Notes: generated by a model from the letters alone, not told the origin. DNA of 64,000 nt from Candidatus Collierbacteria bacterium RIFOXYD2_FULL_45_13 (GCA_001774685.1 MFAS01000001.1:705485-769484); one strand, 5' to 3'. Counted from the stretch's first letter, positions 15,166 to 50,918 are shown. Numbers and translations: made by a program.

Positions 15166-15714
15166 ATGGACGAAGCAAAATTGGTGAGTAGTACTTGGGT
15201 TGAAAAAGGTGTGACTATGAAGTTTACCTGGTATCCCGGCGATAATCTGGAAAGGTTTCAACCATTCAATCAGGTATACGGTGTCGTCTTTAATTCAGAT
15301 GGTCAGATGCTTATTCAAAGAAGGGAGTTAAGACCTTGGTGCCTGGCCGGAGGTACTGTCGAAGAAGGGGAGACAGCCGAACAAGCTCTCAGACGAGAAC
15401 TAATTGAAGAAGCCGATGTCACCATCAAAAATCTCATCTTACTCGGTGGTCAAAGAGTGCAATTTCCCGGAGGTCACAACCCGAATCCGACCAAACGCTT
15501 TACTGGCGATGATTTTTATCAACTCCGTTATTACTGTGAAGTTGATGAGGTTCTACCTCAAACACCGGACCCCGATCACGATATCATCAACGAACGGCTC
15601 TTTGTTCCTCAAACAGAAATAAACAAATACCTGGGCTGGGGTGCCACGGGACAAGTGATCTTTGATCAAGCCATCGCTCTTTTTCATCAACTCCACCCTG
15701 CTATACTAAATTAA
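15166..15714 (+). CDS. NUDIX hydrolase (paralog A)
   Basis: Nudix box GGTVEEGETAEQALRRELIEEADV, matching G-x5-E-x7-REUxEE. Confidence 0.8.
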   Translation: MDEAKLVSSTWVEKGVTMKFTWYPGDNLERFQPFNQVYGVVFNSDGQMLIQRRELRPWCLAGGTVEEGETAEQALRRELIEEADVTIKNLILLGGQRVQFPGGHNPNPTKRFTGDDFYQLRYYCEVDEVLPQTPDPDHDIINERLFVPQTEINKYLGWGATGQVIFDQAIALFHQLHPAILN

Positions 15715-17263: not shown

Positions 17264-18727
17264 TTACTCCAGTGCCAAGCCTGCCGCGACGGAAGTAAAT
17301 GGGTCAAACTCCGTAACTTTCTCTTTTCCAAAAATTTCCTCCAGCATTTTTTCGAATACTGGTACCAAAGAAGACCCTCCGGTTCTCACCACCACATCTA
17401 TATCCTTTGGCTCCAAATCGGCGTTCTTGATTGTTCTCAGGACTGTCTCTCTGACAGCCAGAACCCTCGGCTGGATCATCTTCTCAAACTCCAATCGAGT
17501 AATTTCCTCATCAATATCAATAAGGCCGTCTTTAAACACAATCCTAGCCTTTTCGTTATTGGTCAACAGCTTTTTTGCCACCTCGATTGCCTCATACATC
17601 TCAAACCCCAAATTCTTTTGAATCAAATATAGAAGCCACTCAATTGCTTTTGGGTCGGTATTTTTGTATTTTACATTTCCTGTTAGGAAACCAATATCGT
17701 CAGGATTATTTAAGTTCGGGATTCCAAACCAAGACCTTAGTCCGGCAATGATATGCCCCGGCATTCTCATCTGCATCTCGCCAAAGCGGACTTCAGTACC
17801 GAAATGCTTACCCAGTTTATGATAAAAAATATCCGAGTTAAGTAGATCTCCTCCCACATATACCCCGTCGGTCGCCAATACCTTGTACCCACTATTTTGA
17901 TTTTTTGAATTTTCGAGTTTTTCTTCGCCCACTTCCATTATTGTTGTATCGAATGTTCCTCCTCCAAAATCAAAAACGAGAATCATCTTCCCTTTACTGG
18001 GAAACTTGGACAAATAGTATTTGGCTGCCGCCACCGGTTCAAACTGGAATTTCACCTCATCAAACCCTGCGGCTCGTATTGCCTTCTCCAGTCGGTCCTG
18101 TGCGGCCATATCGGCCTCAGGACTAGTTGAAAACGAGACGGGTCTACCACAAACCACCGATTTTCTTGTTTCTCCGGCTATCAAATCCGCTGTTTTCTTG
18201 AGTTCACTCACAAACTTTCCAATCATTTCCTCTAGGGTATATTCTTTTCCAAAGACTCGCGCGCCCTTATAGTGGGGGGACTTTAAAGCGGTCTTGAGAG
18301 CGTGAAAAAGCCTTCCCGTACCAAAATCCACCTCCTCGTAGTAATCGGGGATATCTCCAGTCACCACCTTCCCGCTGGGAGTAGTATACAAAATGACATT
18401 ATTGTATTTACCCGTATAGATCCTTCGTTTGACGCCTTCATGCCTGGATTTATTGTCATTTAGGTAGGTTTTTACCGCCAGATTACCGGTAGCAACTTTC
18501 TCTTCACCTTCGTACCACACCTGATCGAACATGAAAGTATTAGTCGTTAGCTGTTCTTTGTTTACCTTATTCGAAATCATTAGCTTCCTGGGGTAGAAAT
18601 ACAAAGCAGATCTGGCCACACCTTTGTTCTCGGCTGCTTGGTCAACAGGCATCAAAACCGCCTCACCGTTGACGAGCGTGCTCAGAGAAGTATTTGTGGT
18701 ACCAAAATCCAGTCCGTAAAAAGCCAT
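17264..18727 (-). CDS. Hsp70-family actin-like ATPase (NBD only, non-canonical)
   Basis: Phosphate-1 motif GLDFGTTNTS and phosphate-2 motif VFDFGGGTFD. It lacks a typical DnaK substrate-binding domain and lid. The listed ORF starts at an upstream TTG; the ATG at 18727 is the likely start. Confidence 0.7.
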   Translation of the reverse strand: MAFYGLDFGTTNTSLSTLVNGEAVLMPVDQAAENKGVARSALYFYPRKLMISNKVNKEQLTTNTFMFDQVWYEGEEKVATGNLAVKTYLNDNKSRHEGVKRRIYTGKYNNVILYTTPSGKVVTGDIPDYYEEVDFGTGRLFHALKTALKSPHYKGARVFGKEYTLEEMIGKFVSELKKTADLIAGETRKSVVCGRPVSFSTSPEADMAAQDRLEKAIRAAGFDEVKFQFEPVAAAKYYLSKFPSKGKMILVFDFGGGTFDTTIMEVGEEKLENSKNQNSGYKVLATDGVYVGGDLLNSDIFYHKLGKHFGTEVRFGEMQMRMPGHIIAGLRSWFGIPNLNNPDDIGFLTGNVKYKNTDPKAIEWLLYLIQKNLGFEMYEAIEVAKKLLTNNEKARIVFKDGLIDIDEEITRLEFEKMIQPRVLAVRETVLRTIKNADLEPKDIDVVVRTGGSSLVPVFEKMLEEIFGKEKVTEFDPFTSVAAGLALE

Positions 18728-18981
18728 AAAACATTTGGAGGTTAACCTAAAAATTGTACAGCATGTGTTGCATAATTGCGCAGCTAAAAACTTACCAGAA
18801 TGAAAGAACACCAACTCTTCTGTCAGGAGGACTAATCATCATTTAGATAACATTATTTACACCGAAAACAAATCCAGATTAAAGTGTTCATTTTCATTTC
18901 ACAGTCTGCTTTAATTTTAAACCATTACCTAATAATGTATTTAGCTAGAAATCAAGATCAGAGACTGTAAATATAATGATA

Positions 18982-19500
18982 TTATTTTTGATATTTTATT
19001 GCTGCCCTCAACATTTGTCTTCCATGTTCACCCCAGTTCACATAAAAGTTCGCTTCGTCTGGTTTGACGAATCTTATTTCATCGATAGTACCATCCTCTG
19101 GATCCGGTGTTCTGATAACTGTTCTGTCGACAACACTTACAGTACATAATTGGAAGAAATCATTTTCGTTTTGATCATTCAGGGGACCTCGGACTTTAAA
19201 AGCTCCAAAAAGATGAATGCCCTTAGGGATTATTCCTGTTTCCTGAGTCATCTCTCTAGTTACTGTTTCTTGAAAAGTTTCGTTATTTTCGGGGCCACCT
19301 CCTTGAAAGCGCCAAACCCCATTTTCATTTTGGATCAGAACATGACCTTCACCATTGAAACATATACTATGTACCAAGGAATACGGTTTGAATTGTGTCA
19401 AGTCGTCTCCCTCAATCCATGTATAAAGATATTGTTTACCTTCCCACTCTACAATTTCGTTCTCCACAGGTCTATCGCATTCAGACATATCCAATATCAT
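18982..19500 (-). CDS. NUDIX hydrolase (paralog B of 15166-15714)
   Basis: Nudix box FQGGGPENNETFQETVTREMTQETGI, and C-terminal similarity to paralog A. The start at MILDM lies one nucleotide after the stop of the upstream gene, suggesting translational coupling. Confidence 0.7.
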   Translation of the reverse strand: MILDMSECDRPVENEIVEWEGKQYLYTWIEGDDLTQFKPYSLVHSICFNGEGHVLIQNENGVWRFQGGGPENNETFQETVTREMTQETGIIPKGIHLFGAFKVRGPLNDQNENDFFQLCTVSVVDRTVIRTPDPEDGTIDEIRFVKPDEANFYVNWGEHGRQMLRAAIKYQK

Positions 19501-19501
19501 A

Positions 19502-20170
19502 TTACAAATCAATAGGCAGGGTGTGTTCAATCCTGTATTTACTTTCTTCTGATTTATAAACATTCTTCCTATCTATTAAAATACCTTTTATAATACATAT
19601 CTCAGCAAAAGTGTCTAGATTTGTAACAAGGTCATCGATAAAAATAATATTTTTCGATAATACGATTTTGTTTATCATCAAAAAATAGAAATTCTTATCA
19701 TTTTTTAAAAAACCAATTTCATCAGAAATAAAAAACTGTTTGGCATAAGAGTTTAAATTCAGCAATTCTAAGGTTTTTCTTCTGCTGGGACGTCCATCTG
19801 AAATAATATAAACATTCCCCCCCTTTTTGTAATTTTCGAGTGCCGGTATGGCATCAGGATATAGTACATGAGCCAGTGTTCGATACTTGCTTATTGATAT
19901 CTCCCTTGCCTTATCTTCAAAGTTATTAAGGTTCAGATAAGTATTTAAAAAACCACCAAAATGATGTTCGGTTAATTTTAGTTCTTCTTTGAAGTCTTTA
20001 AAGGTAAGAGATCTATCATATAGATTACTCGACAGGCAATAGCTTTCATATTTACCCTTCAAGTCGCGATCGGAAACCCCTAAAATATTTTCCATGATTT
20101 GTAGATCAGTTTCAAATTCCGGTAATATTCTGTAACCTAATGTCTCTGCGAAATCTATAAATATATCCAT
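19502..20170 (-). CDS. HAD-like hydrolase with a degenerate motif I
   Basis: Motif II YIISDG, a Lys region, and motif IV IIFIDDLVTN are present. Motif I reads FIDFAET, so the second Asp is missing and the protein may be inactive or a variant. Confidence 0.35.
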   Translation of the reverse strand: MDIFIDFAETLGYRILPEFETDLQIMENILGVSDRDLKGKYESYCLSSNLYDRSLTFKDFKEELKLTEHHFGGFLNTYLNLNNFEDKAREISISKYRTLAHVLYPDAIPALENYKKGGNVYIISDGRPSRRKTLELLNLNSYAKQFFISDEIGFLKNDKNFYFLMINKIVLSKNIIFIDDLVTNLDTFAEICIIKGILIDRKNVYKSEESKYRIEHTLPIDL

Positions 20171-21750
20171 TATTCTGAACCTGATAGAAACTTAGCGATT
20201 AAATCAGAATTTATCTCAAATTCTTTTCTGATTTCTTCCATAGTTCCACGCCTCGTGGGATGATTTATATGATATACTCCACAAGCTAGCACGGGTATTA
20301 TAAAGGCCCCAGCTGAAATCGCCTTTATTCCGATAAGAGAATCTTCCAGTCCATAACCGCTAAATTTATTATCAAAACCTCCAGTGGCGTAAAAAAGATT
20401 CTTTGGAATTGACAAATTGTGACCAACAACCATTGAAGGTAGATCAAAATTGCCGAGTCTTCTCCCAAAACCCAATGTCCTAAAGTAATTTGTTTCTGAC
20501 AGTATCGAAAAAATATCCCCTTGCGCTAAATAGTTGTTGGAGTAATATCCCATAGTGTCCTTATCAATGTACTTGGTAATTCTCAGGTCACTGCTATAGT
20601 TTGGCATCACAACACCGCGCTTAACTGCATCGTAAGATATTCTCACATCAGTTGGTTCAGCATTCTCTTTGAAACTTACAAGCAGGGCTTTATTAACAAG
20701 TTTGTGCCTCAGCAGATGCTCGTATAAATAATTTGGTGTTAGTACCACATCACCATCGATAAACAATAGAATATCATTTGAAGAAACTGCGGCACCGATG
20801 TTCCTCGTTTGTGAGATACCTGAATTTTTTTCTTTTCTAATAATAATGGGTTCATAGCGCAAATCATCCTGAACCTTTTTGATAATTTCCGAGACAGGTT
20901 CTTTTGATCCATCATCTACGACAATGACCTCAAATTTAATTACATCGGGAGTTTGTCGGTCTATTGATTTTAAAGTTTTGATTATAGATTCCCCTAGATT
21001 AAATGCCGGAATGATTATCGACACTGATGGCAAATCCGCGGTATAAATCTTGGGAGTCGGGGCAGAACCGAGCATTTTGTATCCGGTTATTTGTTCAAAA
21101 ACTGTAACAAGCTCACCGTAATCATTAGAAACGGCGCTTATTTGATGAAAATAGGAAGTGGTGGTAGACAAAGATAAGCTCAGATTCACCTGTTTGCAAA
21201 AATTAATAACCTTTTCATTCAATACTCCGAGATCATCGACTAAGCTTTCATCAACAATTTTACTGGTTCTATGGATAAGCTTATCTTTATCAATCTTATT
21301 CTTAAGTATTTTTTGAATTGTCTCTGATTTAAACTTAGCATCTTCGTGGCACAGAATTTCAAACTGATGTTCAGAAATCAGAGTATCACTAAGGTAAATA
21401 ACGCTAGCCTCTTGATCCTCCGGGAAAGAGAGCTGTATTACGTTACTGAGAGCAGCACTCTTTAATCCTGCACCAAAAAGCACATTTAATAACGTACCTA
21501 AAAATTTGGATTTAAATTTCGCTTCTCTCCAGGTTTCTGTGGTCTTCACCGAGATACGACGTCCCAAGAATAGGTTGTTTTCATCACACCTAAGTCTGAT
21601 TTCATTTTCGAAATACAATGTCAACACTCTCTTAACACGCGGAAACCCAAGTTCGTTAGACAAATCACGTATTAGTTGATTCACTTCAGCGTCATCTTGA
21701 AAAAGACAAATATTGTTAATTAAATCGGATTTTGACGCATCGTATCTCAT
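20170..21750 (-). CDS. family 2 glycosyltransferase with a 240-aa N-terminal domain of unknown function
   Basis: GT2 core (VSIIIPAFN...VIVVDDGS...FIDGDVV) in the C-terminal half; the N-terminal half has no recognisable motif. Confidence 0.7.
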   Translation of the reverse strand: MRYDASKSDLINNICLFQDDAEVNQLIRDLSNELGFPRVKRVLTLYFENEIRLRCDENNLFLGRRISVKTTETWREAKFKSKFLGTLLNVLFGAGLKSAALSNVIQLSFPEDQEASVIYLSDTLISEHQFEILCHEDAKFKSETIQKILKNKIDKDKLIHRTSKIVDESLVDDLGVLNEKVINFCKQVNLSLSLSTTTSYFHQISAVSNDYGELVTVFEQITGYKMLGSAPTPKIYTADLPSVSIIIPAFNLGESIIKTLKSIDRQTPDVIKFEVIVVDDGSKEPVSEIIKKVQDDLRYEPIIIRKEKNSGISQTRNIGAAVSSNDILLFIDGDVVLTPNYLYEHLLRHKLVNKALLVSFKENAEPTDVRISYDAVKRGVVMPNYSSDLRITKYIDKDTMGYYSNNYLAQGDIFSILSETNYFRTLGFGRRLGNFDLPSMVVGHNLSIPKNLFYATGGFDNKFSGYGLEDSLIGIKAISAGAFIIPVLACGVYHINHPTRRGTMEEIRKEFEINSDLIAKFLSGSE

Positions 21751-21758
21751 ATTTGTAA

Positions 21759-22268
21759 TTATTTAATATTTCTGTCCAGACCAAAAAGGTTTTTGTATTG
21801 GACGAGATCTAATTCCAAAAATTGATATTTTTTTGGATCAAAAAACATTTCAGGGTAAAAGTTTGAACTATCCCGCAATTCCTCTTCAGTTTTTAGTATA
21901 CATTTTTTAATTTTTTCATATCCTGTATATTCTTTCTGAACTATTTCAATTTCATTAAATTTCATTTCCGTTTCACATTCAAAAAAGAACTCAAAGTTTC
22001 TATCAAATGGGGATACGGTTTCTTTTACAAATCTCAATTCTTTGGCTACAAAATTCTTTATGTTTAATTCTTCACCAATTTCCCTGTCTAGTGTTGCAAT
22101 CAAGGATTCGTTGGATTTTGCGTGACCTCCAGGGAAAAGTAGATAATCATTTCTTGAGGCGTTCATCTGCTCAATAACTAAATATTTTTCATCAAACTTG
22201 AACACGGCTCTGACAACCACAACAATTTTTTCGTTATTCATATTAGTTTGAATACCATCTGTTAACAA
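21759..22268 (-). CDS. NUDIX hydrolase (C)
   Basis: Nudix box FPGGHAKSNESLIATLDREIGEELNI. Confidence 0.75.
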   Translation of the reverse strand: MLTDGIQTNMNNEKIVVVVRAVFKFDEKYLVIEQMNASRNDYLLFPGGHAKSNESLIATLDREIGEELNIKNFVAKELRFVKETVSPFDRNFEFFFECETEMKFNEIEIVQKEYTGYEKIKKCILKTEEELRDSSNFYPEMFFDPKKYQFLELDLVQYKNLFGLDRNIK

Positions 22269-22881
22269 AGGGGATAGAACCCTTAAGATTATCTAAATCC
22301 TGTTTTGGGATAAGTAAGTTCATAACTCTTTTTGTGTCATCCTTATCATCAGGAACATGGATAAGGTTAGAAGCGAATAAGTCAATACCAATTTGCTTTG
22401 TGGTCACAGGATCTAGGGTCCCGTTCTTCCACGCTTCGAGCGTTTGATCATCGATCGGATTACTGCTACCAAATCTTCCCCGAACTCCCTCGCCTGTTCT
22501 AACACTGCCCTTGAGTTTTTTTAATAAAATTGGTGCGTCCTTAGCCGCTACGAGCATGAGTCCAATCGGACCTGTTTGAAAATGCTCCTGAATATATTTT
22601 AAAAACTCCTCATGCTTCTGTTCAGGGTATAACTTCTTAACATCCTCAGGTTTAATACGGATTTCGGTAAATCCAAAAAATTCCACAGGTTTATCTGTCA
22701 TTTGTTCCAACTCTCGCTGGATAAAATCCCTAATGGGCAAATCAAGAAGCGAGTTGGTGGAATCAGGTTTAAAGAGAACCATGCCAATCCCATTTTTTTC
22801 TTCCTCGGGAGTTAATATGTCTTCGTAAAAATCTCCCATTTCACTAAATCTATTTTGAACATAATCTGGAGTTATTTCCAT
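22243..22881 (-). CDS. nucleoside diphosphate kinase-like protein (divergent)
   Basis: An MVLFKPDS region corresponds to the IKPD motif, and NLIHVPDD corresponds to the NxxHGSDS active-site His motif. At 212 aa it is longer than canonical NDK. Confidence 0.5.
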   Translation of the reverse strand: MEITPDYVQNRFSEMGDFYEDILTPEEEKNGIGMVLFKPDSTNSLLDLPIRDFIQRELEQMTDKPVEFFGFTEIRIKPEDVKKLYPEQKHEEFLKYIQEHFQTGPIGLMLVAAKDAPILLKKLKGSVRTGEGVRGRFGSSNPIDDQTLEAWKNGTLDPVTTKQIGIDLFASNLIHVPDDKDDTKRVMNLLIPKQDLDNLKGSIPFVNRWYSN

Positions 22882-23750
22882 ATTTCCAATTGTTTTATAT
22901 AATCCACAACCGACTCGGGCGATCCTTGAATTGAGTAACAGGGGATTTTTTGAGCAACTTCTTTAACGGATTGTATTCTATGGTCACCATTCGCACGACT
23001 ATCAATTGAAGGCACAGCGATATTACCATCTTTAACTCTTCTGGAGATTGCTCTAATTTTTCTACCTAGTTCTTCATATAAATGCCACTCAAATTTTTCC
23101 GGTCTCCAAAGATCTGTCGACATCTCAGCACCATTTATTCCAAAACCGTAGACAAATAAAGCGATCGGAACAGGTTCAGAATTATTAGTTGCTGAATGGT
23201 AATAAGAGTCCTCTTGTTTGTCGGTGATCTGTCTCTTCCAATAGTCTTTATCTAGATAAATAAAGGGGATTCCTCCAAGTATTTCCATATTCCTCGCATT
23301 AACTAATGTCTTCTCATCGGAATAGAAAGACCCATCATTTGCGAGCAGTTTTGCAAGCCTTGTCTTACCCATCCCACTTGCACCTCCCCAAAAGATTACA
23401 GCCTTGCCTTTATAAACTGCCGTAGCGGAATGAATACAAAAAATGCCTTTCTCCTGTCTGACTCTTTCAAAAACCAACTCTATTAATGAGATTATCTCTT
23501 TTTCGCTTACTCCTTTTATGCCTATTTTAATCTTCGGATAATCTTTAAATTCAAAAAAAACTTCTTGATTCAAAAATTCTACGCTAGCCTCAATATTATT
23601 ATCAGTCGCAAGAGAGAATCCTGGAATATATTTACTTAAAAAATCATTATTTTGTATTGTCTCCGCCAATTCACCACTCTCAAAAATCACTCTTAGTGTT
23701 AATCCTGCTGAAGAAAGGTATAGCTCTTTATTCTTTGATGGCATTTTCAA
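22872..23750 (-). CDS. HPr kinase/phosphorylase C-terminal-domain-like P-loop protein
   Basis: IHSATAVYKGKAVIFWGGASGMGKTRLAKLL matches the HprK-type P-loop region (VLIxGxSGxGKSE). Confidence 0.55.
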   Translation of the reverse strand: MKMPSKNKELYLSSAGLTLRVIFESGELAETIQNNDFLSKYIPGFSLATDNNIEASVEFLNQEVFFEFKDYPKIKIGIKGVSEKEIISLIELVFERVRQEKGIFCIHSATAVYKGKAVIFWGGASGMGKTRLAKLLANDGSFYSDEKTLVNARNMEILGGIPFIYLDKDYWKRQITDKQEDSYYHSATNNSEPVPIALFVYGFGINGAEMSTDLWRPEKFEWHLYEELGRKIRAISRRVKDGNIAVPSIDSRANGDHRIQSVKEVAQKIPCYSIQGSPESVVDYIKQLEIWK

Positions 23751-24846
23751 AATAATTTTCTAAATTCATTGCTTTTATATCCCAATTCCAGGTTTCGGAT
23801 TTTTTTCTGGCCTCATCGCCAATAGTGTTACGGAGAGTTTCATCCAATAGTAATTTTTCAATCTCGGTCGCGAGCGATACGGCATCCCGCGGATTCGCAA
23901 GTAGACCATTGACACCATGGTCTACAAATTCAGGCATGCTACAACTATTTGTTGTAACGGTTGGTATACCACAAGCCGCAGCTTCAAGCATCGTCGTTAG
24001 CACACCCTCACGATCAAATGATGGGGCAGAAAAAACTTTCGATCTGTTGTACAAGGAGAGTACATCTTCTTGGGGGACATAACCAATAAATTCGATATTG
24101 TCTGAAAGTTCTAGTCTATCAACCAGCTCTACCAACGACTCTTTCTGATTACCTTTTCCGGCAATCACCACTTTTGGATTTAGTCCTTTGTTAACTAAAA
24201 TTTTAACAGCATCGACAAGATAGTTAACACCTTTTACTGGAACCAGTCTGCCAAAATACAAAATATCTATGTCTTTGGTAACTTGTATTGGATGATAGTT
24301 TGTCGTATCTATCCCATTTGTGAAGGGTATATATTCAATTCCGCCAACCATTTCTGACCATTTCTGTCCAATATATTTTGATACTGAAATATATTTTACA
24401 TTTGGAAATGAGAACCAGATTTTGTCGTAATACTCTGCTTCAGCAGGAACACCGTGCAGAAACATTACTGCGGGGAACTTAATATTTGCAGCCAAAATAT
24501 CCACGTTGTAATGGACATTAAGTACGTCATAAATATTTTTATCGAAATAATTTTGAGCTAATCTTCCCATGTGAATAGCTTCGTAGTCCCATCTCAGCTG
24601 ATTTGTTCCGGGTTTTTCCTCATATATCCATCTGAGGGATGTGGGTAATTCAAGATAGATGACTTCAACGCTTGGATTCACTGAGAGATACTTGTCAAAA
24701 TATTCTGAGTTACCATCGGGATGGCGGGAAGTAACGACCGTTACCTTATGTCCATGTAAAGCAAAATTTCTAGCCATTTCCAGTGGAACCACCTCCCCAC
24801 CCCCAACATAATAACTTACCCTAGGCTGATAAATGGCTATTTTCAT
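23728..24846 (-). CDS. family 4 (GT-B) glycosyltransferase
   Basis: 372 aa with the C-terminal EGVLTTMLEAAACGIPTVTT motif (E-x7-E region) typical of GT4. Confidence 0.8.
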   Translation of the reverse strand: MKIAIYQPRVSYYVGGGEVVPLEMARNFALHGHKVTVVTSRHPDGNSEYFDKYLSVNPSVEVIYLELPTSLRWIYEEKPGTNQLRWDYEAIHMGRLAQNYFDKNIYDVLNVHYNVDILAANIKFPAVMFLHGVPAEAEYYDKIWFSFPNVKYISVSKYIGQKWSEMVGGIEYIPFTNGIDTTNYHPIQVTKDIDILYFGRLVPVKGVNYLVDAVKILVNKGLNPKVVIAGKGNQKESLVELVDRLELSDNIEFIGYVPQEDVLSLYNRSKVFSAPSFDREGVLTTMLEAAACGIPTVTTNSCSMPEFVDHGVNGLLANPRDAVSLATEIEKLLLDETLRNTIGDEARKKSETWNWDIKAMNLENYFENAIKE

Positions 24847-25334
24847 ATCAAATTATCTTTTAGAGTCATAATCTGTGCTTTTCCTGTCGGGCTGTTTGCC
24901 CAGCTTATATATTGGTCAAACTCGTCAATATCTATTAGTTTACGTTCGAAAATCTCGTCGTCGGGAATAAATTCCGGTAAATCACTCAATATTACTAAAA
25001 ATCTTAATTGTGAACTTGATTTACCCTCAACCCCTTCATTCTGAGGATCCGAAACTTTCATCCAACCTATCAATTTAGACTTATACCTCTCTTTGATTTC
25101 AGCTTCCTCGTCAAGTTCTCTTGCAAGAGCTTCTTCTACACTCTCTCCCTCCTCTGGGTGACCTCCTGGAATTGCCCACCCTCTCTTATTTCTCACAATA
25201 ATCAGCTTCCCTTTATATATACAGTAAGCACTCACCTGGCTGACTTTTAATGTGGGGTCAGGATTTCCTGAAAACCAGCTAATAGTAATATTACGATCAT
25301 CAAAATTGACTACCTCAGTTGCTAATGGTTCCAT
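24843..25334 (-). CDS. NUDIX hydrolase (D)
   Basis: Nudix box IPGGHPEEGESVEEALARELDEEAEI. Confidence 0.8.
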   Translation of the reverse strand: MEPLATEVVNFDDRNITISWFSGNPDPTLKVSQVSAYCIYKGKLIIVRNKRGWAIPGGHPEEGESVEEALARELDEEAEIKERYKSKLIGWMKVSDPQNEGVEGKSSSQLRFLVILSDLPEFIPDDEIFERKLIDIDEFDQYISWANSPTGKAQIMTLKDNLI

Positions 25335-25336
25335 TA

Positions 25337-26050
25337 TTATTTGTTACTAAGATTGTTAAATGATTCCAATAATACTATCTTAAAACCTCCGACAAAATTG
25401 GCCATTGCCTTTTGTGAAAACCAACCTAAGGGTAGAAAAATCACGCGAAATACTTCATAAAACAGTTTTGATCTCTTTGGTAGTGGAATATATCCCTCCT
25501 TCAAGATTTTAAAACCGGCAATCGTAAATAATTTATTTAACTGCTTTTCATTATAGTGATGAATATGACCATATCTCTCCTCGCTTTCCTTCCACGGGTC
25601 TCTAATGCCGAGTTTTCGGATAATTTGATTATCTAGAAAAGAATCTTCCATCGGAACTTTAATACAAACCAGCTTACCCAATTCACCCATGCGTTTTAAC
25701 AAACCCAAGTCATCTTCTACGTGTTCAATGATATCAATGCCTGTAACTAAGTCAAAATTTGCCTTAGGGGAGTACTTATATATATCCTCGCAAATCCACT
25801 CAATTTCATGGTCCGTATCATTCTCCTTCGCCACTTTTATCATATCTTTGGAAATATCAATTCCTACAGCCATATCTGGCTTTAGTTTTGCATTGAATTC
25901 CATGGTAATACCACCTGCACCACAAGCTACATCCAGAAGTGAGTCTATTTTTAGTGAACCTAAAAAATTTAAGACTTGCTTAGCTTTTAACTGAGCTTGT
26001 TCCAGATGAAGTCCCGGATTTTTTAAAATATATTCTTTTTGATAATCCAT
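25337..26050 (-). CDS. class I SAM-dependent methyltransferase
   Basis: Motif I LLDVACGAGGIT. It is the first gene of the overlapping operon. Confidence 0.8.
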   Translation of the reverse strand: MDYQKEYILKNPGLHLEQAQLKAKQVLNFLGSLKIDSLLDVACGAGGITMEFNAKLKPDMAVGIDISKDMIKVAKENDTDHEIEWICEDIYKYSPKANFDLVTGIDIIEHVEDDLGLLKRMGELGKLVCIKVPMEDSFLDNQIIRKLGIRDPWKESEERYGHIHHYNEKQLNKLFTIAGFKILKEGYIPLPKRSKLFYEVFRVIFLPLGWFSQKAMANFVGGFKIVLLESFNNLSNK

Positions 26051-43475: not shown

Positions 43476-43549
43476 TGACTCGGGGCGGACTCGGACCGCC
43501 GACCTACTGCTTAGAAGGCAGTCGCTCTATCCAGCTGAGCTACCGAGTC
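43476..43549 (-). tRNA. tRNA-Arg(TCT)
   Basis: Acceptor GACTCGG/CCGAGTC, D-arm AGCTCAGCTGGATAGAGC, anticodon stem ACTGC/GCAGT with loop CTTCTAA, and T-stem GGCGG/CCGCC. Confidence 0.8.
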
Positions 43550-43554
43550 AGGTG

Positions 43555-43638
43555 TGCCGGGGGCGGGAATCGGACCCGCACTCCTTTAGAGGGAACGGGA
43601 TTTTAAGTCCCGCGTGGCTACCATTTCACCACCCCGGC
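43555..43638 (-). tRNA. tRNA-Leu(TAA)
   Basis: Acceptor GCCGGGG/CCCCGGC, anticodon loop CTTAAAA, a long variable arm and T-stem GCGGG/CCCGC. Confidence 0.8.
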
Positions 43639-50186: not shown

Positions 50187-50257
50187 AGCGGGTGAGGGGA
50201 GTCGGACCCCTTTCATCAGCTTGGAAAGCTGAGGTAATACCGGTATACGACACCCGC
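50187..50257 (-). tRNA. tRNA-Gly(TCC)
   Basis: Perfect acceptor GCGGGTG/CACCCGC, anticodon stem TCAGC/GCTGA with loop TTTCCAA, and T-stem AGGGG/CCCCT. The T-loop is the atypical TCCGACT. Confidence 0.7.
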
Positions 50258-50261
50258 GTTG

Positions 50262-50292
50262 TAAATATTTTATCAAAAACCCCACCGGTTTG
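50262..50292 (-). terminator. Rho-independent terminator for the 50306-50635 membrane-protein gene
   Basis: Palindromic ccccacc-ggttt-ggtgggg; on the reverse strand it is followed by ttttt. Confidence 0.6.
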
Positions 50293-50305
50293 GTGGGGAA
50301 AATAT

Positions 50306-50635
50306 TTATCTGGGAGTAGAGTACTCAATTAGGAAGGAAACCAACAATAGAAACAGTGCCACATACAAGCAGGGGAGTGAGTTGGTAATGGCAACGGATC
50401 CAAGCACCATCAAACCAAATAAGAAAAAGGAACCAGGAATATCTATATATATCTTCACTCGCAATATAGCCTTAAAAATCTCGAAAAAAACCAAAATTGA
50501 TCCTCCCATGACAACAAACATCATGACCGGGAAAATATGCGGTAGAAAACCGATCCTCATCGACCCGCCCCAAAGCAAACCGCTAACAAGGGCATATAGG
50601 CAAGTTAGCAATATGAGCCAAAAACGCTTATTCAT
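50306..50635 (-). CDS. small polytopic membrane protein
   Basis: 109 aa, three or four TM helices. Confidence 0.45.
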   Translation of the reverse strand: MNKRFWLILLTCLYALVSGLLWGGSMRIGFLPHIFPVMMFVVMGGSILVFFEIFKAILRVKIYIDIPGSFFLFGLMVLGSVAITNSLPCLYVALFLLLVSFLIEYSTPR

Positions 50636-50701
50636 TGGACCTCCTAAGAATTGAAGGGTACAGTGACAAAGATATCACCAAATCCCCACCATTGTCTATT
50701 G

Positions 50702-50775
50702 TCGGGGTGGTGAGACTCGAACTCACGACCCCTGCGTCCCAAACGCAGTACTCTAGCCATCTGAGCTACACCCCG
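50702..50775 (-). tRNA. tRNA-Pro(TGG)
   Basis: Acceptor CGGGGTG/CACCCCG, anticodon stem CTGCG/CGCAG with loop TTTGGGA, and T-arm GTGAG-TTCGAGT-CTCAC. Confidence 0.8.
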
Positions 50776-50844
50776 ATAGACTGATTTTACCATTCAAAGC
50801 TCATTTTGAGGTAAAATATAGTCCTGACGGTCTAAGCCGTTTAT

Positions 50845-50918
50845 GGTGGATTTAGCTTAGTCGGTAAAGCGCCTCCCTGTGGAGGAGGAGATCGCGGGTT
50901 CGAGTCCCGTAATCCACC
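50845..50918 (+). tRNA. tRNA-His(GTG) with a genome-encoded G-1
   Basis: G-1 followed by GTGGATT/AATCCAC, discriminator C, anticodon stem CCTCC/GGAGG with loop CTGTGGA, and T-loop TTCGAGT. Confidence 0.8.

Follow-up and report, generated by a model that had tools for sequence, protein, structure and literature searches.

The question raised by this locus is what two neighbouring genes that resemble phosphotransfer enzymes are doing within a tightly packed run of glycosyltransferase (GT) and NUDIX hydrolase genes. The genes lie in a 64,000-nucleotide stretch of DNA, hereafter the window, from Candidatus Collierbacteria, a member of the candidate phyla radiation (CPR, or Patescibacteria) with a genome of approximately 1.09 Mb. 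A first-pass annotation had described here an adjacent pair, one protein related to nucleoside-diphosphate kinase (NDK) and one to the HPr kinase/phosphorylase HprK/P, and both open reading frames (ORFs) were found exactly at the positions that it gave, on the minus strand:

22243..22881, minus strand: NDK-like protein, 212 amino acids (aa), ATG start
22872..23750, minus strand: PCKL, a P-loop kinase-like protein of the phosphoenolpyruvate carboxykinase (PEPCK)/HprK superfamily, 292 aa, two domains, TTG start

The two ORFs overlap by 10 nt, and the PCKL ORF has an in-frame Met codon two codons downstream of its TTG start. In our view, there is a probability of roughly 0.5 that both genes encode active-type phosphotransfer enzymes working in a biosynthetic cassette that is conserved, soluble and dependent on nucleotide sugars, and that occurs mainly in Patescibacteria. 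The evidence comes from the two proteins themselves and from the company that their genes keep.

The NDK-like protein and PCKL

Relationship of the 212-aa protein to the NDKs was apparent at several levels. Scored against the Pfam NDK model (PF00334), of which it covers positions 14-133 of 135, it reaches 31.7 bits (E 1.7e-7) and so exceeds the gathering score of 27, its family profile matches solved NDKs in the PDB with E 1e-12, and hhalign aligned it with E. coli Ndk over 129 columns (92.6% probability, E 4.6e-7). Pairwise phmmer with E. coli Ndk left the protein undetected even at E 10, and its 19-24 bits did not reach the NCBIfam Ndk equivalog cut-offs (155-202 bits). An AlphaFold model, which like the conservation counts below rests on 46 homologs, has a pLDDT (predicted local distance difference test) of 88.8, and its top 50 Foldseek matches in the PDB are all NDKs, with target-normalised TM-scores (template modelling scores) of 0.65-0.84; structure prediction thus returned the NDK fold that had been anticipated. 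The catalytic-His motif NLIHVPDD (N172-H175-D178) and the IKPD-like segment picked out in the first-pass annotation, the latter as LFKPDS (K38-P39-D40), are both present and do not represent matches by chance. Residues K38, Y85, K124, R134 and the catalytic H175 occur in 46/46 sequences, N172 and D178 in 44/46 each, and K38, Y85, R134, N172 and H175 are in register with K11, Y51, R104, N114 and H117 of E. coli Ndk.

As had been remarked, the protein also exceeds housekeeping Ndk greatly in length and divergence, with 212 versus 143 aa (compact NDKs have approximately 140-155 aa). The additional residues form a 27-aa N-terminal extension, 28 aa before the catalytic His and 11 aa at the C-terminal end. 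The 28 aa form two helices (residues ~145-170) inserted into the Kpn-loop region, after R134 and ahead of the N172-x-x-H175 strand; W151, which lies within this insertion, is kept in 45/46 homologs. Of the two canonical residues supporting the catalytic His in NDKs, Ser120 and Glu129 (human NME1 numbering), the former is replaced (A in 33 sequences, P in 11, S in only 2) and the latter is S, V or A, not Glu. The phosphate ligands Arg88 and Thr94 are likewise altered: the R88 equivalent is L, N or S and the T94 equivalent is variable, while the invariant K124 sits three residues past the R88 position. Based on alignments and model together, we conclude that the protein is an NDK-superfamily member with the phospho-His machinery retained, and that it represents a distinct subfamily.

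Assigning PCKL was less direct. Its sequence alone reached HprK_rel_B with E 1.5e-4 (21.0 bits) and HprK_rel_A with E 7.5e-3 (15.4 bits) in NCBIfam, both below the cut-offs of 200 bits, and the Thermus ATP-PEPCK with a sub-threshold E of 0.049; Pfam gave no match, Hpr_kinase_C (gathering score 33.3 bits) being without a match at E 0.05 or better. The top PDB matches of the single sequence, Kelch-repeat designer proteins (SAKe), were dismissed, as they involve a short WH-containing stretch inflated by repeats, and a PDB search with the P-loop segment alone returned uninformative generic ABC and AAA P-loops. The predicted structure, with a pLDDT of 92.8 and a pTM (predicted TM-score) of 0.90, matches only PEPCK and HprK/P folds above background. 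A family profile was then built from 118 diverse members, which also underlie the conservation counts. With this profile, HprK/P structures were matched best (1jb1 and 2qmh, E 5.3e-7; 1ko7, 8.8e-7; 1knx, 9.3e-6; 3tqf, 2.1e-5), and PEPCK followed behind them at 3.7e-3. Scanned singly, 47 of the 118 members touch Pfam Hpr_kinase_C (best E 4.3e-8) and 21 weakly touch PEPCK_ATP. In the profile alignment, H107, GK129T130 and D145-E146 of PCKL pair with the His, GKS and DD of Lactobacillus casei HprK. With E. coli PckA, hhalign brought family columns 84-134 against PckA residues 212-258, which include His232 and the kinase-1a region, over only 46 local columns (32% probability, P 4.7e-4).

The P-loop reported earlier, VIFWGGASGMGKT, is present in PCKL as G122-G-A-S-G-M-G-K129-T130, accompanied by H107 upstream and D145-E146-K147 downstream. 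Its G126-x-G128-K129-T130 core is kept in 118/118 members, as are K129, D250 and R258 individually, and G128, R233, S248, R98 and H107 are each conserved in at least 89%; orthologs thus retain the P-loop of PCKL as they do the catalytic His of the NDK-like protein. H107 is found in 105/118 sequences, D145 in 103/118 (N in a further 11) and E146 in 102/118 (D in a further 10). Three C-terminal motifs are specific to the family, I232-R233, S248-x-D250 and R258, and fall outside every stretch aligned to HprK or PEPCK. Of the Mn ligands and substrate residues of PckA (K213, H232 and D269; R65, Y207 and R333, E. coli numbering), H232 has its equivalent in H107, and the K213 equivalent, position 84, holds K in 32 sequences, R in 21, E in 17 and other residues elsewhere; the acidic D145 after the P-loop is conserved, and no tool aligned it to D269. 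For R65, Y207 and R333 no counterpart came to light, since the alignment did not extend beyond PckA residues 212-258. A co-variation of K84 and H107 as a PEPCK-type Mn site, suggested by four sequences, did not survive the 118-sequence alignment, which shows position 84 to vary and E-H pairs to be frequent. The family is sizeable, with 701 representatives at 50% identity for E <=1e-3 and 260 for <=1e-10; among the 150 representatives listed, nearly all have approximately 250-310 aa, and orthologs carry the precomputed Pfam accession PF27840.

Altogether, these comparisons place PCKL in the PEPCK/HprK class of P-loop kinase folds, as a member of neither family. Judged by sequence, its P-loop region is nearest to the HprK C-terminal domain, while in the model the overall two-domain shape is nearest to ATP-PEPCK, so that the protein looks like a half-size PEPCK. 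The HprK-like P-loop proposed in the first-pass annotation therefore holds for the P-loop region, but not as family membership, the predicted architecture being PEPCK-like.

The cassette and its conservation

Both genes belong to an operon of nine minus-strand genes running from 26050 down to 18982, in which adjacent ORFs overlap or are separated by 8 nt or less. The order is SAM-methyltransferase (SAM, S-adenosylmethionine), NUDIXa, GT4, PCKL, NDK-like, NUDIXb, GT2, HAD-IA and NUDIXc, the seven genes besides those given above being:

25337..26050, minus strand: class I SAM-dependent methyltransferase, 237 aa, the operon's first gene (Pfam Methyltransf_23/25/11)
24843..25334, minus strand: NUDIXa, the core NUDIX hydrolase, 163 aa (Pfam NUDIX, E 4.6e-13)
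23728..24846, minus strand: GT4 glycosyltransferase (GT-B fold), 372 aa (Pfam Glycos_transf_1, E 3.9e-41)
21759..22268, minus strand: NUDIXb, second NUDIX paralog, 169 aa (Pfam NUDIX, E 5.5e-7)
20170..21750, minus strand: GT2 glycosyltransferase (GT-A fold), 526 aa (Pfam Glycos_transf_2, E 1.3e-22, residues 244-349)
19502..20170, minus strand: HAD-IA phosphatase, 222 aa (Pfam Hydrolase, E 2.8e-6)
18982..19563, minus strand: NUDIXc, third NUDIX paralog, 193 aa, the operon's last gene (Pfam NUDIX, E 2e-14)

The 3' end of the GT4 gene overlaps the PCKL start by 23 nt, and uvrA lies divergently upstream of the operon. As a scan for promoters and terminators gave counts no higher than in shuffled sequences, the operon was delimited by gene packing instead. 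Its GC content is 0.365, compared with 0.437 for the remaining window, which may point to horizontal transfer or to a bias in the composition of these genes; the lowest single-gene values are 0.30-0.31 (NUDIXb and HAD-IA). A 212-aa protein identical to the NDK-like one is on record in Candidatus Collierbacteria RIFOXYB2_FULL_46_14. An ORF for a 516-aa Hsp70/actin-fold ATPase-like protein (17264-18814, minus strand; NCBIfam PRK11678 'molecular chaperone', 134 bits, under the cut-off) lies immediately downstream; it was considered as a further, YegD-like component and rejected, since a gap of 167 nt separates it from the operon and it is absent from every other locus.

To follow the genes across genomes, loci were collected from the homologs' contigs and from GTDB species genomes, every ORF was typed with profiles of the window-operon proteins, and duplicates were counted once, which left 21 distinct cassette loci (denoted L001 and so on). 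In all 21, GT4 is directly followed by PCKL, usually with overlapping reading frames, and a NUDIX gene precedes GT4 with two exceptions. Every evaluable cassette has a GT2, and 14 of the 20 evaluable loci have the NDK-like gene. The gene orders fall into the following forms:

Type 1 (Collierbacteria window; Shapirobacteria L001 and L007): the gene order of the window
Type 2, Parcubacteria-type (Buchananbacteria, Lloydbacteria, Paceibacterota and others; L002, L004-L006, L012, L013, L016, L021): GT2 (~330 aa), HAD-IIB, NDK-like, NUDIX, GT4, PCKL
Type 3 (L003, L020): unknown, HAD-IIB, His_Phos_1, unknown, NUDIX, GT4, PCKL, GT2, with no NDK-like gene
L025: BpsA_C-PCKL fusion (639 aa), NUDIX, GT4, GT2 and a thymidylate-kinase-like (Tmk-like) gene (L025:1094-3013, L025:5517-6278)

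Fusions tie further members together: GT2 is joined to HAD-IIB in L009:1936-3771 (612 aa) and L017:3071-4807 (579 aa), and to NUDIX in L018:1937-3334(-) (466 aa), a locus that also carries a more canonical NDK (Pfam 56.5 bits). The phosphatase types interchange, with HAD-IIB, HAD-IA or, in L003/L020, an added His_Phos_1, and these three types indicate that what the cassette needs is 'a phosphatase'. The core therefore consists of six genes, namely NUDIX, GT4, PCKL, GT2, a phosphatase and, usually, the NDK-like gene, and the NDK-like/PCKL pair is part of this larger cassette, not a self-contained two-gene unit. Phosphotransfer by the pair in connection with the neighbouring GT and NUDIX enzymes, as first suggested, thus agrees with the folds, the motifs and the linkage, but the functional unit is the six-gene core rather than the pair.

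Neither HPr or phosphotransferase system (PTS) genes, nor machinery for peptides made by ribosomal synthesis and modified after translation (RiPPs), nor a priming glycosyltransferase, flippase or exporter is conserved as a cassette neighbour, and in 7 loci the genes called within ~8-10 kb include no PTS-HPr family. Rfam, applied to the window and to five cassette loci, yielded tRNA and rRNA only, and no riboswitch. Five cassette contigs (L010, L011, L016, L021, L022) are titled 'Clostridia bacterium' or 'uncultured Gammaproteobacteria', and their cassette proteins show 30-38% identity to the window PCKL. These titles may be binning or annotation artefacts, or may reflect spread beyond the CPR; 'CPR-restricted' is accordingly to be taken as 'predominantly CPR'.

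Concerning the remaining enzymes, NUDIXa has an intact catalytic NUDIX box, with G57/G58, E64, R72-E73 and E76-E77 invariant in 17 orthologs, and its profile retrieved only generic MutT/Nudix proteins from the PDB. The catalytic domain of the window GT2 begins at approximately residue 240, the N-terminal ~235 aa being without a family match, and PDB searches with GT2 returned only generic relatives, such as the chondroitin synthase GT2 domain. HAD-IA, whose best NCBIfam match is the YjjG-family (pyrimidine) nucleotidase (E 3.4e-7, sub-threshold), stands in for the Cof-type HAD-IIB phosphatase of the Parcubacteria-type cassette. The best matches of HAD-IIB itself are weak and include the phosphoglycolate phosphatase, Cof-type, sucrose-phosphate-phosphatase (SPP) and mannosyl-3-phosphoglycerate-phosphatase (MPGP) families, as well as a bifunctional model combining MPGP with the corresponding synthase (MPGS/MPGP); in the PDB, only generic relatives such as an archaeal phosphoglycolate phosphatase were found. 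A Kyte-Doolittle scan gave a convincing membrane segment in no cassette protein, GT2 having one hydrophobic stretch near its C-terminal end, so that by this measure all of them look soluble. The methyltransferase and NUDIXb are accessories of the Microgenomates-type cassette, both keeping their position in L001 and L007; HAD-IA also has orthologs in L001 and L007, and NUDIXc in L001.

Several side observations were made in these loci. Long GT2 forms (~500-570 aa), carrying the N-terminal extension, occur in the window and in L001, L003, L007, L011, L020, L022 and L023; the extension, as scanned in the forms from the window and L011, matches nothing in Pfam or NCBIfam, and the Parcubacteria-type GT2 (~330 aa) is without it. 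A fourth NUDIX paralog (182 aa; 15166-15711, plus strand; 96 bits to the NUDIXc profile) lies approximately 3 kb from the operon, bringing the NUDIX genes to four within 11 kb of a ~1-Mb genome. The type 3 cassettes span L003:4833-8406 and L020:1918-5408 and contain two conserved proteins without family match, of ~371-391 aa and 277-280 aa; a reading of the ~280-aa protein as a sulfotransferase, made by eye from SRSGHH and RDxxxxxxS, was supported by neither a PDB profile search nor Pfam nor NCBIfam. The BpsA_C domain of the L025 fusion is aminopropyl/methyltransferase-like, and no NDK-like gene was called on that 6.5-kb contig. The window holds tRNA clusters of six within 720 nt (34500-35220), two (43476-43638) and four (50187-50918). 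In L005, a 23S rRNA match of 4465 nt (L005:11764-16228), to be compared with a 2925-nt model and so holding ~1.5 kb of insertion(s), lies ~600 nt downstream of the cassette; insertions have been reported in CPR rRNA genes.

A proposed pathway and competing explanations

A soluble kinase, two GTs and a phosphatase that is sometimes fused to a GT fit the logic of a two-step glycoside synthesis, and it is from this arrangement and the weak HAD-IIB matches that the following steps are proposed. PCKL, half-size PEPCK-like and probably coupled to GT4 in translation, would use ATP, or possibly pyrophosphate (PPi), which is a usable substrate for HprK/P and PPi-PEPCK, to place a phosphate on a small-molecule acceptor or on what GT4 produces. 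GT2 would then glycosylate the phosphorylated intermediate, and the HAD phosphatase, fused to GT2 in some genomes, would take the phosphate off. The NDK-like protein would autophosphorylate on His175 from a nucleoside triphosphate (NTP) and recharge the nucleoside diphosphate (NDP) freed by both glycosyltransferases, which would keep the nucleotide pool full; such organisms are generally reported to lack de novo nucleotide synthesis. The NUDIX enzyme may act on the nucleotide-linked donor or on a by-product, and the pathway would end in a soluble glycoside, which the Collierbacteria/Shapirobacteria version would methylate. That the NDK slot serves nucleotide re-phosphorylation is suggested by the Tmk-like gene in L025, which lacks the NDK-like gene, and by the more canonical NDK in L018. 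The scheme follows the 'synthase plus phosphatase' logic familiar from the sucrose-phosphate, mannosylglycerate and glucosylglycerate pathways.

Several results weigh against this proposal. NUDIX, GT2 and GT4 give generic family matches only, no riboswitch in the window or the five loci scanned reveals a ligand, and the cassette contains no NDP-sugar pyrophosphorylase. Moreover, replacement of the canonical His-supporting residues and of the R88 and T94 equivalents, together with the 28-aa insertion in the Kpn region, means that classical NDP kinase activity is not assured, and the lack of the NDK-like gene in 6 of the 20 evaluable cassettes implies that it is not essential to the chemistry. 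As the P-loop region of PCKL is nearest to protein or peptide Ser kinases (HprK and the RiPP kinases), a protein substrate is possible. In addition, the pyrimidine-nucleotidase match of HAD-IA, as a sequence match, would fit nucleotide as well as sugar-phosphate metabolism.

The protein substrate leads to a distinct explanation, in which PCKL would phosphorylate Ser in a protein or peptide, either one that is secreted or exposed at the surface or, as a regulatory target, the co-translated GT4, and the GTs would then add sugar to it, possibly at or beside the phosphate. The nearest relatives of the P-loop region are indeed HprK/P (E 5e-7) and the NCBIfam HprK-related kinases A and B, GT4 weakly matches the protein O-glycosyltransferase SdgA, and RiPP HprK-type kinases phosphorylate a Ser of the precursor peptide, in clusters that are reported to be embedded in glycosyltransferase-rich loci (PMC13381572). 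However, genes for HPr, the RiPP recognition element (RRE)/PqqD, a precursor peptide, a leader peptidase, an NTP-transferase or an exporter were not called in the examined neighbourhoods, no conserved small ORF stands beside the cassette, and the whole-protein fold is predicted to be PEPCK-like, with a PEPCK-type N-terminal domain. PEPCKs work on small molecules, and the GT2-HAD and GT2-NUDIX fusions and the nucleotide kinases are hard to account for in a protein-modifying system, which we regard as improbable. A more modest explanation concerns the NDK-like protein only, which might be the housekeeping Ndk, fast-evolving in a reduced genome and placed in the operon for expression, with no pathway-specific role. 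Source annotations call several orthologs nucleoside-diphosphate kinase, no canonical ndk was found within the 64-kb window, neither the catalytic His nor the core ligands of nucleotide and phosphate vary, and the slot in L018 holds a more canonical NDK. Against this, linkage to the cassette is kept across very distant Patescibacteria despite differing gene orders, the gene is missing from cassette types with other nucleotide or phospho-enzymes (Tmk-like in L025, His_Phos_1 in L003/L020), and the family has its own 28-aa insertion with the near-invariant W151 and a conserved N-terminal extension. A housekeeping role, which would be compatible with the main model, thus seems unlikely.

The nucleotide may also be the centre of the system rather than its currency, the cassette making or destroying a modified nucleotide or nucleoside (a glycosylated or methylated nucleotide, a signal or an antimetabolite), possibly as a conflict or defence module. 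In that case the NDK, Tmk-like, NUDIX and HAD-nucleotidase enzymes would have the nucleotide itself as their substrate, with the GTs decorating it. Such a role would suit the three NUDIX paralogs with a fourth nearby, the methyltransferase, the YjjG-type HAD-IA, the Tmk-like gene in L025 and the low operon GC, as well as the score of GT4 for the Pfam GT4-conflict model (28.2 bits, gathering score 26). That match is, however, far weaker than the generic GT4 ones, PADLOC gave only generic NUDIX and methyltransferase matches and no defence model, no nuclease, sensor or effector gene is conserved, and the cassette neighbourhoods contain varied housekeeping genes rather than defence islands; we hold this explanation to be very unlikely. 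Even lower is the probability that we would give to synthesis of an envelope glycopolymer or glycolipid (teichoic-acid-like, capsule or glycolipid anchor), in which kinase and phosphatase would act on lipid-linked or polymer intermediates. In NCBIfam, GT4 and GT2 come nearest to synthases of exopolysaccharide, teichuronic acid and glycolipid (EpsE, EpsD, TuaC, TuaG, Mgs), in each case far under the cut-off, and the hydrophobic stretch of GT2 could be read in the same direction. Nevertheless, the conserved members lack a convincing membrane span, a priming phosphoglycosyltransferase, flippase, polymerase or ABC exporter is not among them, GT2, with ~330 aa, is short and of a non-processive type, and the GT2-HAD and GT2-NUDIX fusions suggest soluble phospho-intermediates.

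Synthesis of a soluble glycoside through phosphorylated intermediates remains the explanation that we prefer. In a bolder version, which we find doubtful although conceivable, the cassette would encode a complete route, specific to the Patescibacteria lineage, to a soluble glycoside or glyco-phospho-metabolite not described before, with PCKL as a small-molecule kinase docked to GT4 and the NDK-like protein channelling NTP or donating phospho-His within the complex. If so, this would be the first small-molecule, non-PEPCK activity in the PEPCK/HprK kinase superfamily, and the variable slot (NDK-like, Tmk-like, His_Phos_1) would represent interchangeable phospho-relay solutions.

Novelty and relation to known systems

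Since both proteins fall in known superfamilies, no new category is represented here. The novelty lies in the combination of an NDK subfamily remodelled in the Kpn region, a family of half-size PEPCK/HprK-type kinases with its own motifs, and a shared, largely Patescibacteria cassette. In the searchable literature, we found no description of the cassette, of PF27840 or of anything related, only the background on RiPP HprK-type kinases. Patescibacteria account for a large part of bacterial diversity and are generally reported to be mostly uncultured, with tiny genomes, and a gene set kept in such small genomes is likely to matter for their lifestyle. Here, six soluble enzymes are kept in genomes of both Microgenomates and Parcubacteria type, with several rearrangements and fusions. 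Should the product be a glycoside specific to the CPR, whether as a compatible solute, a surface precursor or a signal, a gap in the physiology of the CPR would be filled, together with a first function for the half-size PEPCK/HprK-type kinase family and the Kpn-remodelled NDK subfamily. As the enzymes are small, soluble and confidently modelled, these proposals are testable in vitro or by heterologous expression.

Compared with Ndk/NME (PF00334, EC 2.7.4.6), the NDK-like protein shares the fold, an above-threshold profile match, the NxxH His, the KPD Lys, the Tyr and the R105-equivalent Arg, but it is longer and differs in the Kpn-region insertion, the substituted His-supporting residues, the invariant K124 and its setting in a glycosylation cassette. 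With HprK/P (PF07475 and PF02603), PCKL has in common the P-loop GxSGxGK(S/T), the upstream His and the downstream acidic pair. The overall HprK architecture is not reproduced, however, as the N-terminal domain is by prediction PEPCK-like and not HprK-N; PCKL is also always paired with GT4, has its own C-terminal motifs and has no HPr/PTS genes nearby. From PckA (PF01293), in turn, it differs in being about half the size (292 versus 540 aa), with a PEPCK-normalised TM-score of only ~0.3, in giving no full-length (~520-540 aa) profile match, and in that the K213-equivalent Lys is not conserved.

The best single-sequence family matches of PCKL are the HprK-type kinases of RiPP and lasso-peptide clusters (TIGR04352/TIGR04355; LppK, paeninodin-type), which are stand-alone HprK-superfamily kinases of biosynthetic clusters reported to lie in GT-rich loci (PMC13381572). 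PCKL scores only 15-21 bits against cut-offs of 200 bits, however, and the precursor peptide, RRE/PqqD, peptidase, NTP-transferase and exporter are absent from the window operon and the related loci. Moreover, that cluster family is reported to be widespread in Bacillota (PMC13381572), whereas the present cassette is found mainly in Patescibacteria. The glycosyl-phosphate synthase and HAD phosphatase pathways (sucrose phosphate; mannosyl- and glucosyl-3-phosphoglycerate), among which bifunctional fusions occur, differ from the cassette, which adds a kinase, NUDIX, a second GT and the NDK-like protein and reaches no family cut-off. Nevertheless, they share with it a GT coupled or fused to HAD-IIB, soluble proteins and the weak SPP/MPGP matches, and by analogy the cassette would resemble these solute pathways in its logic only.

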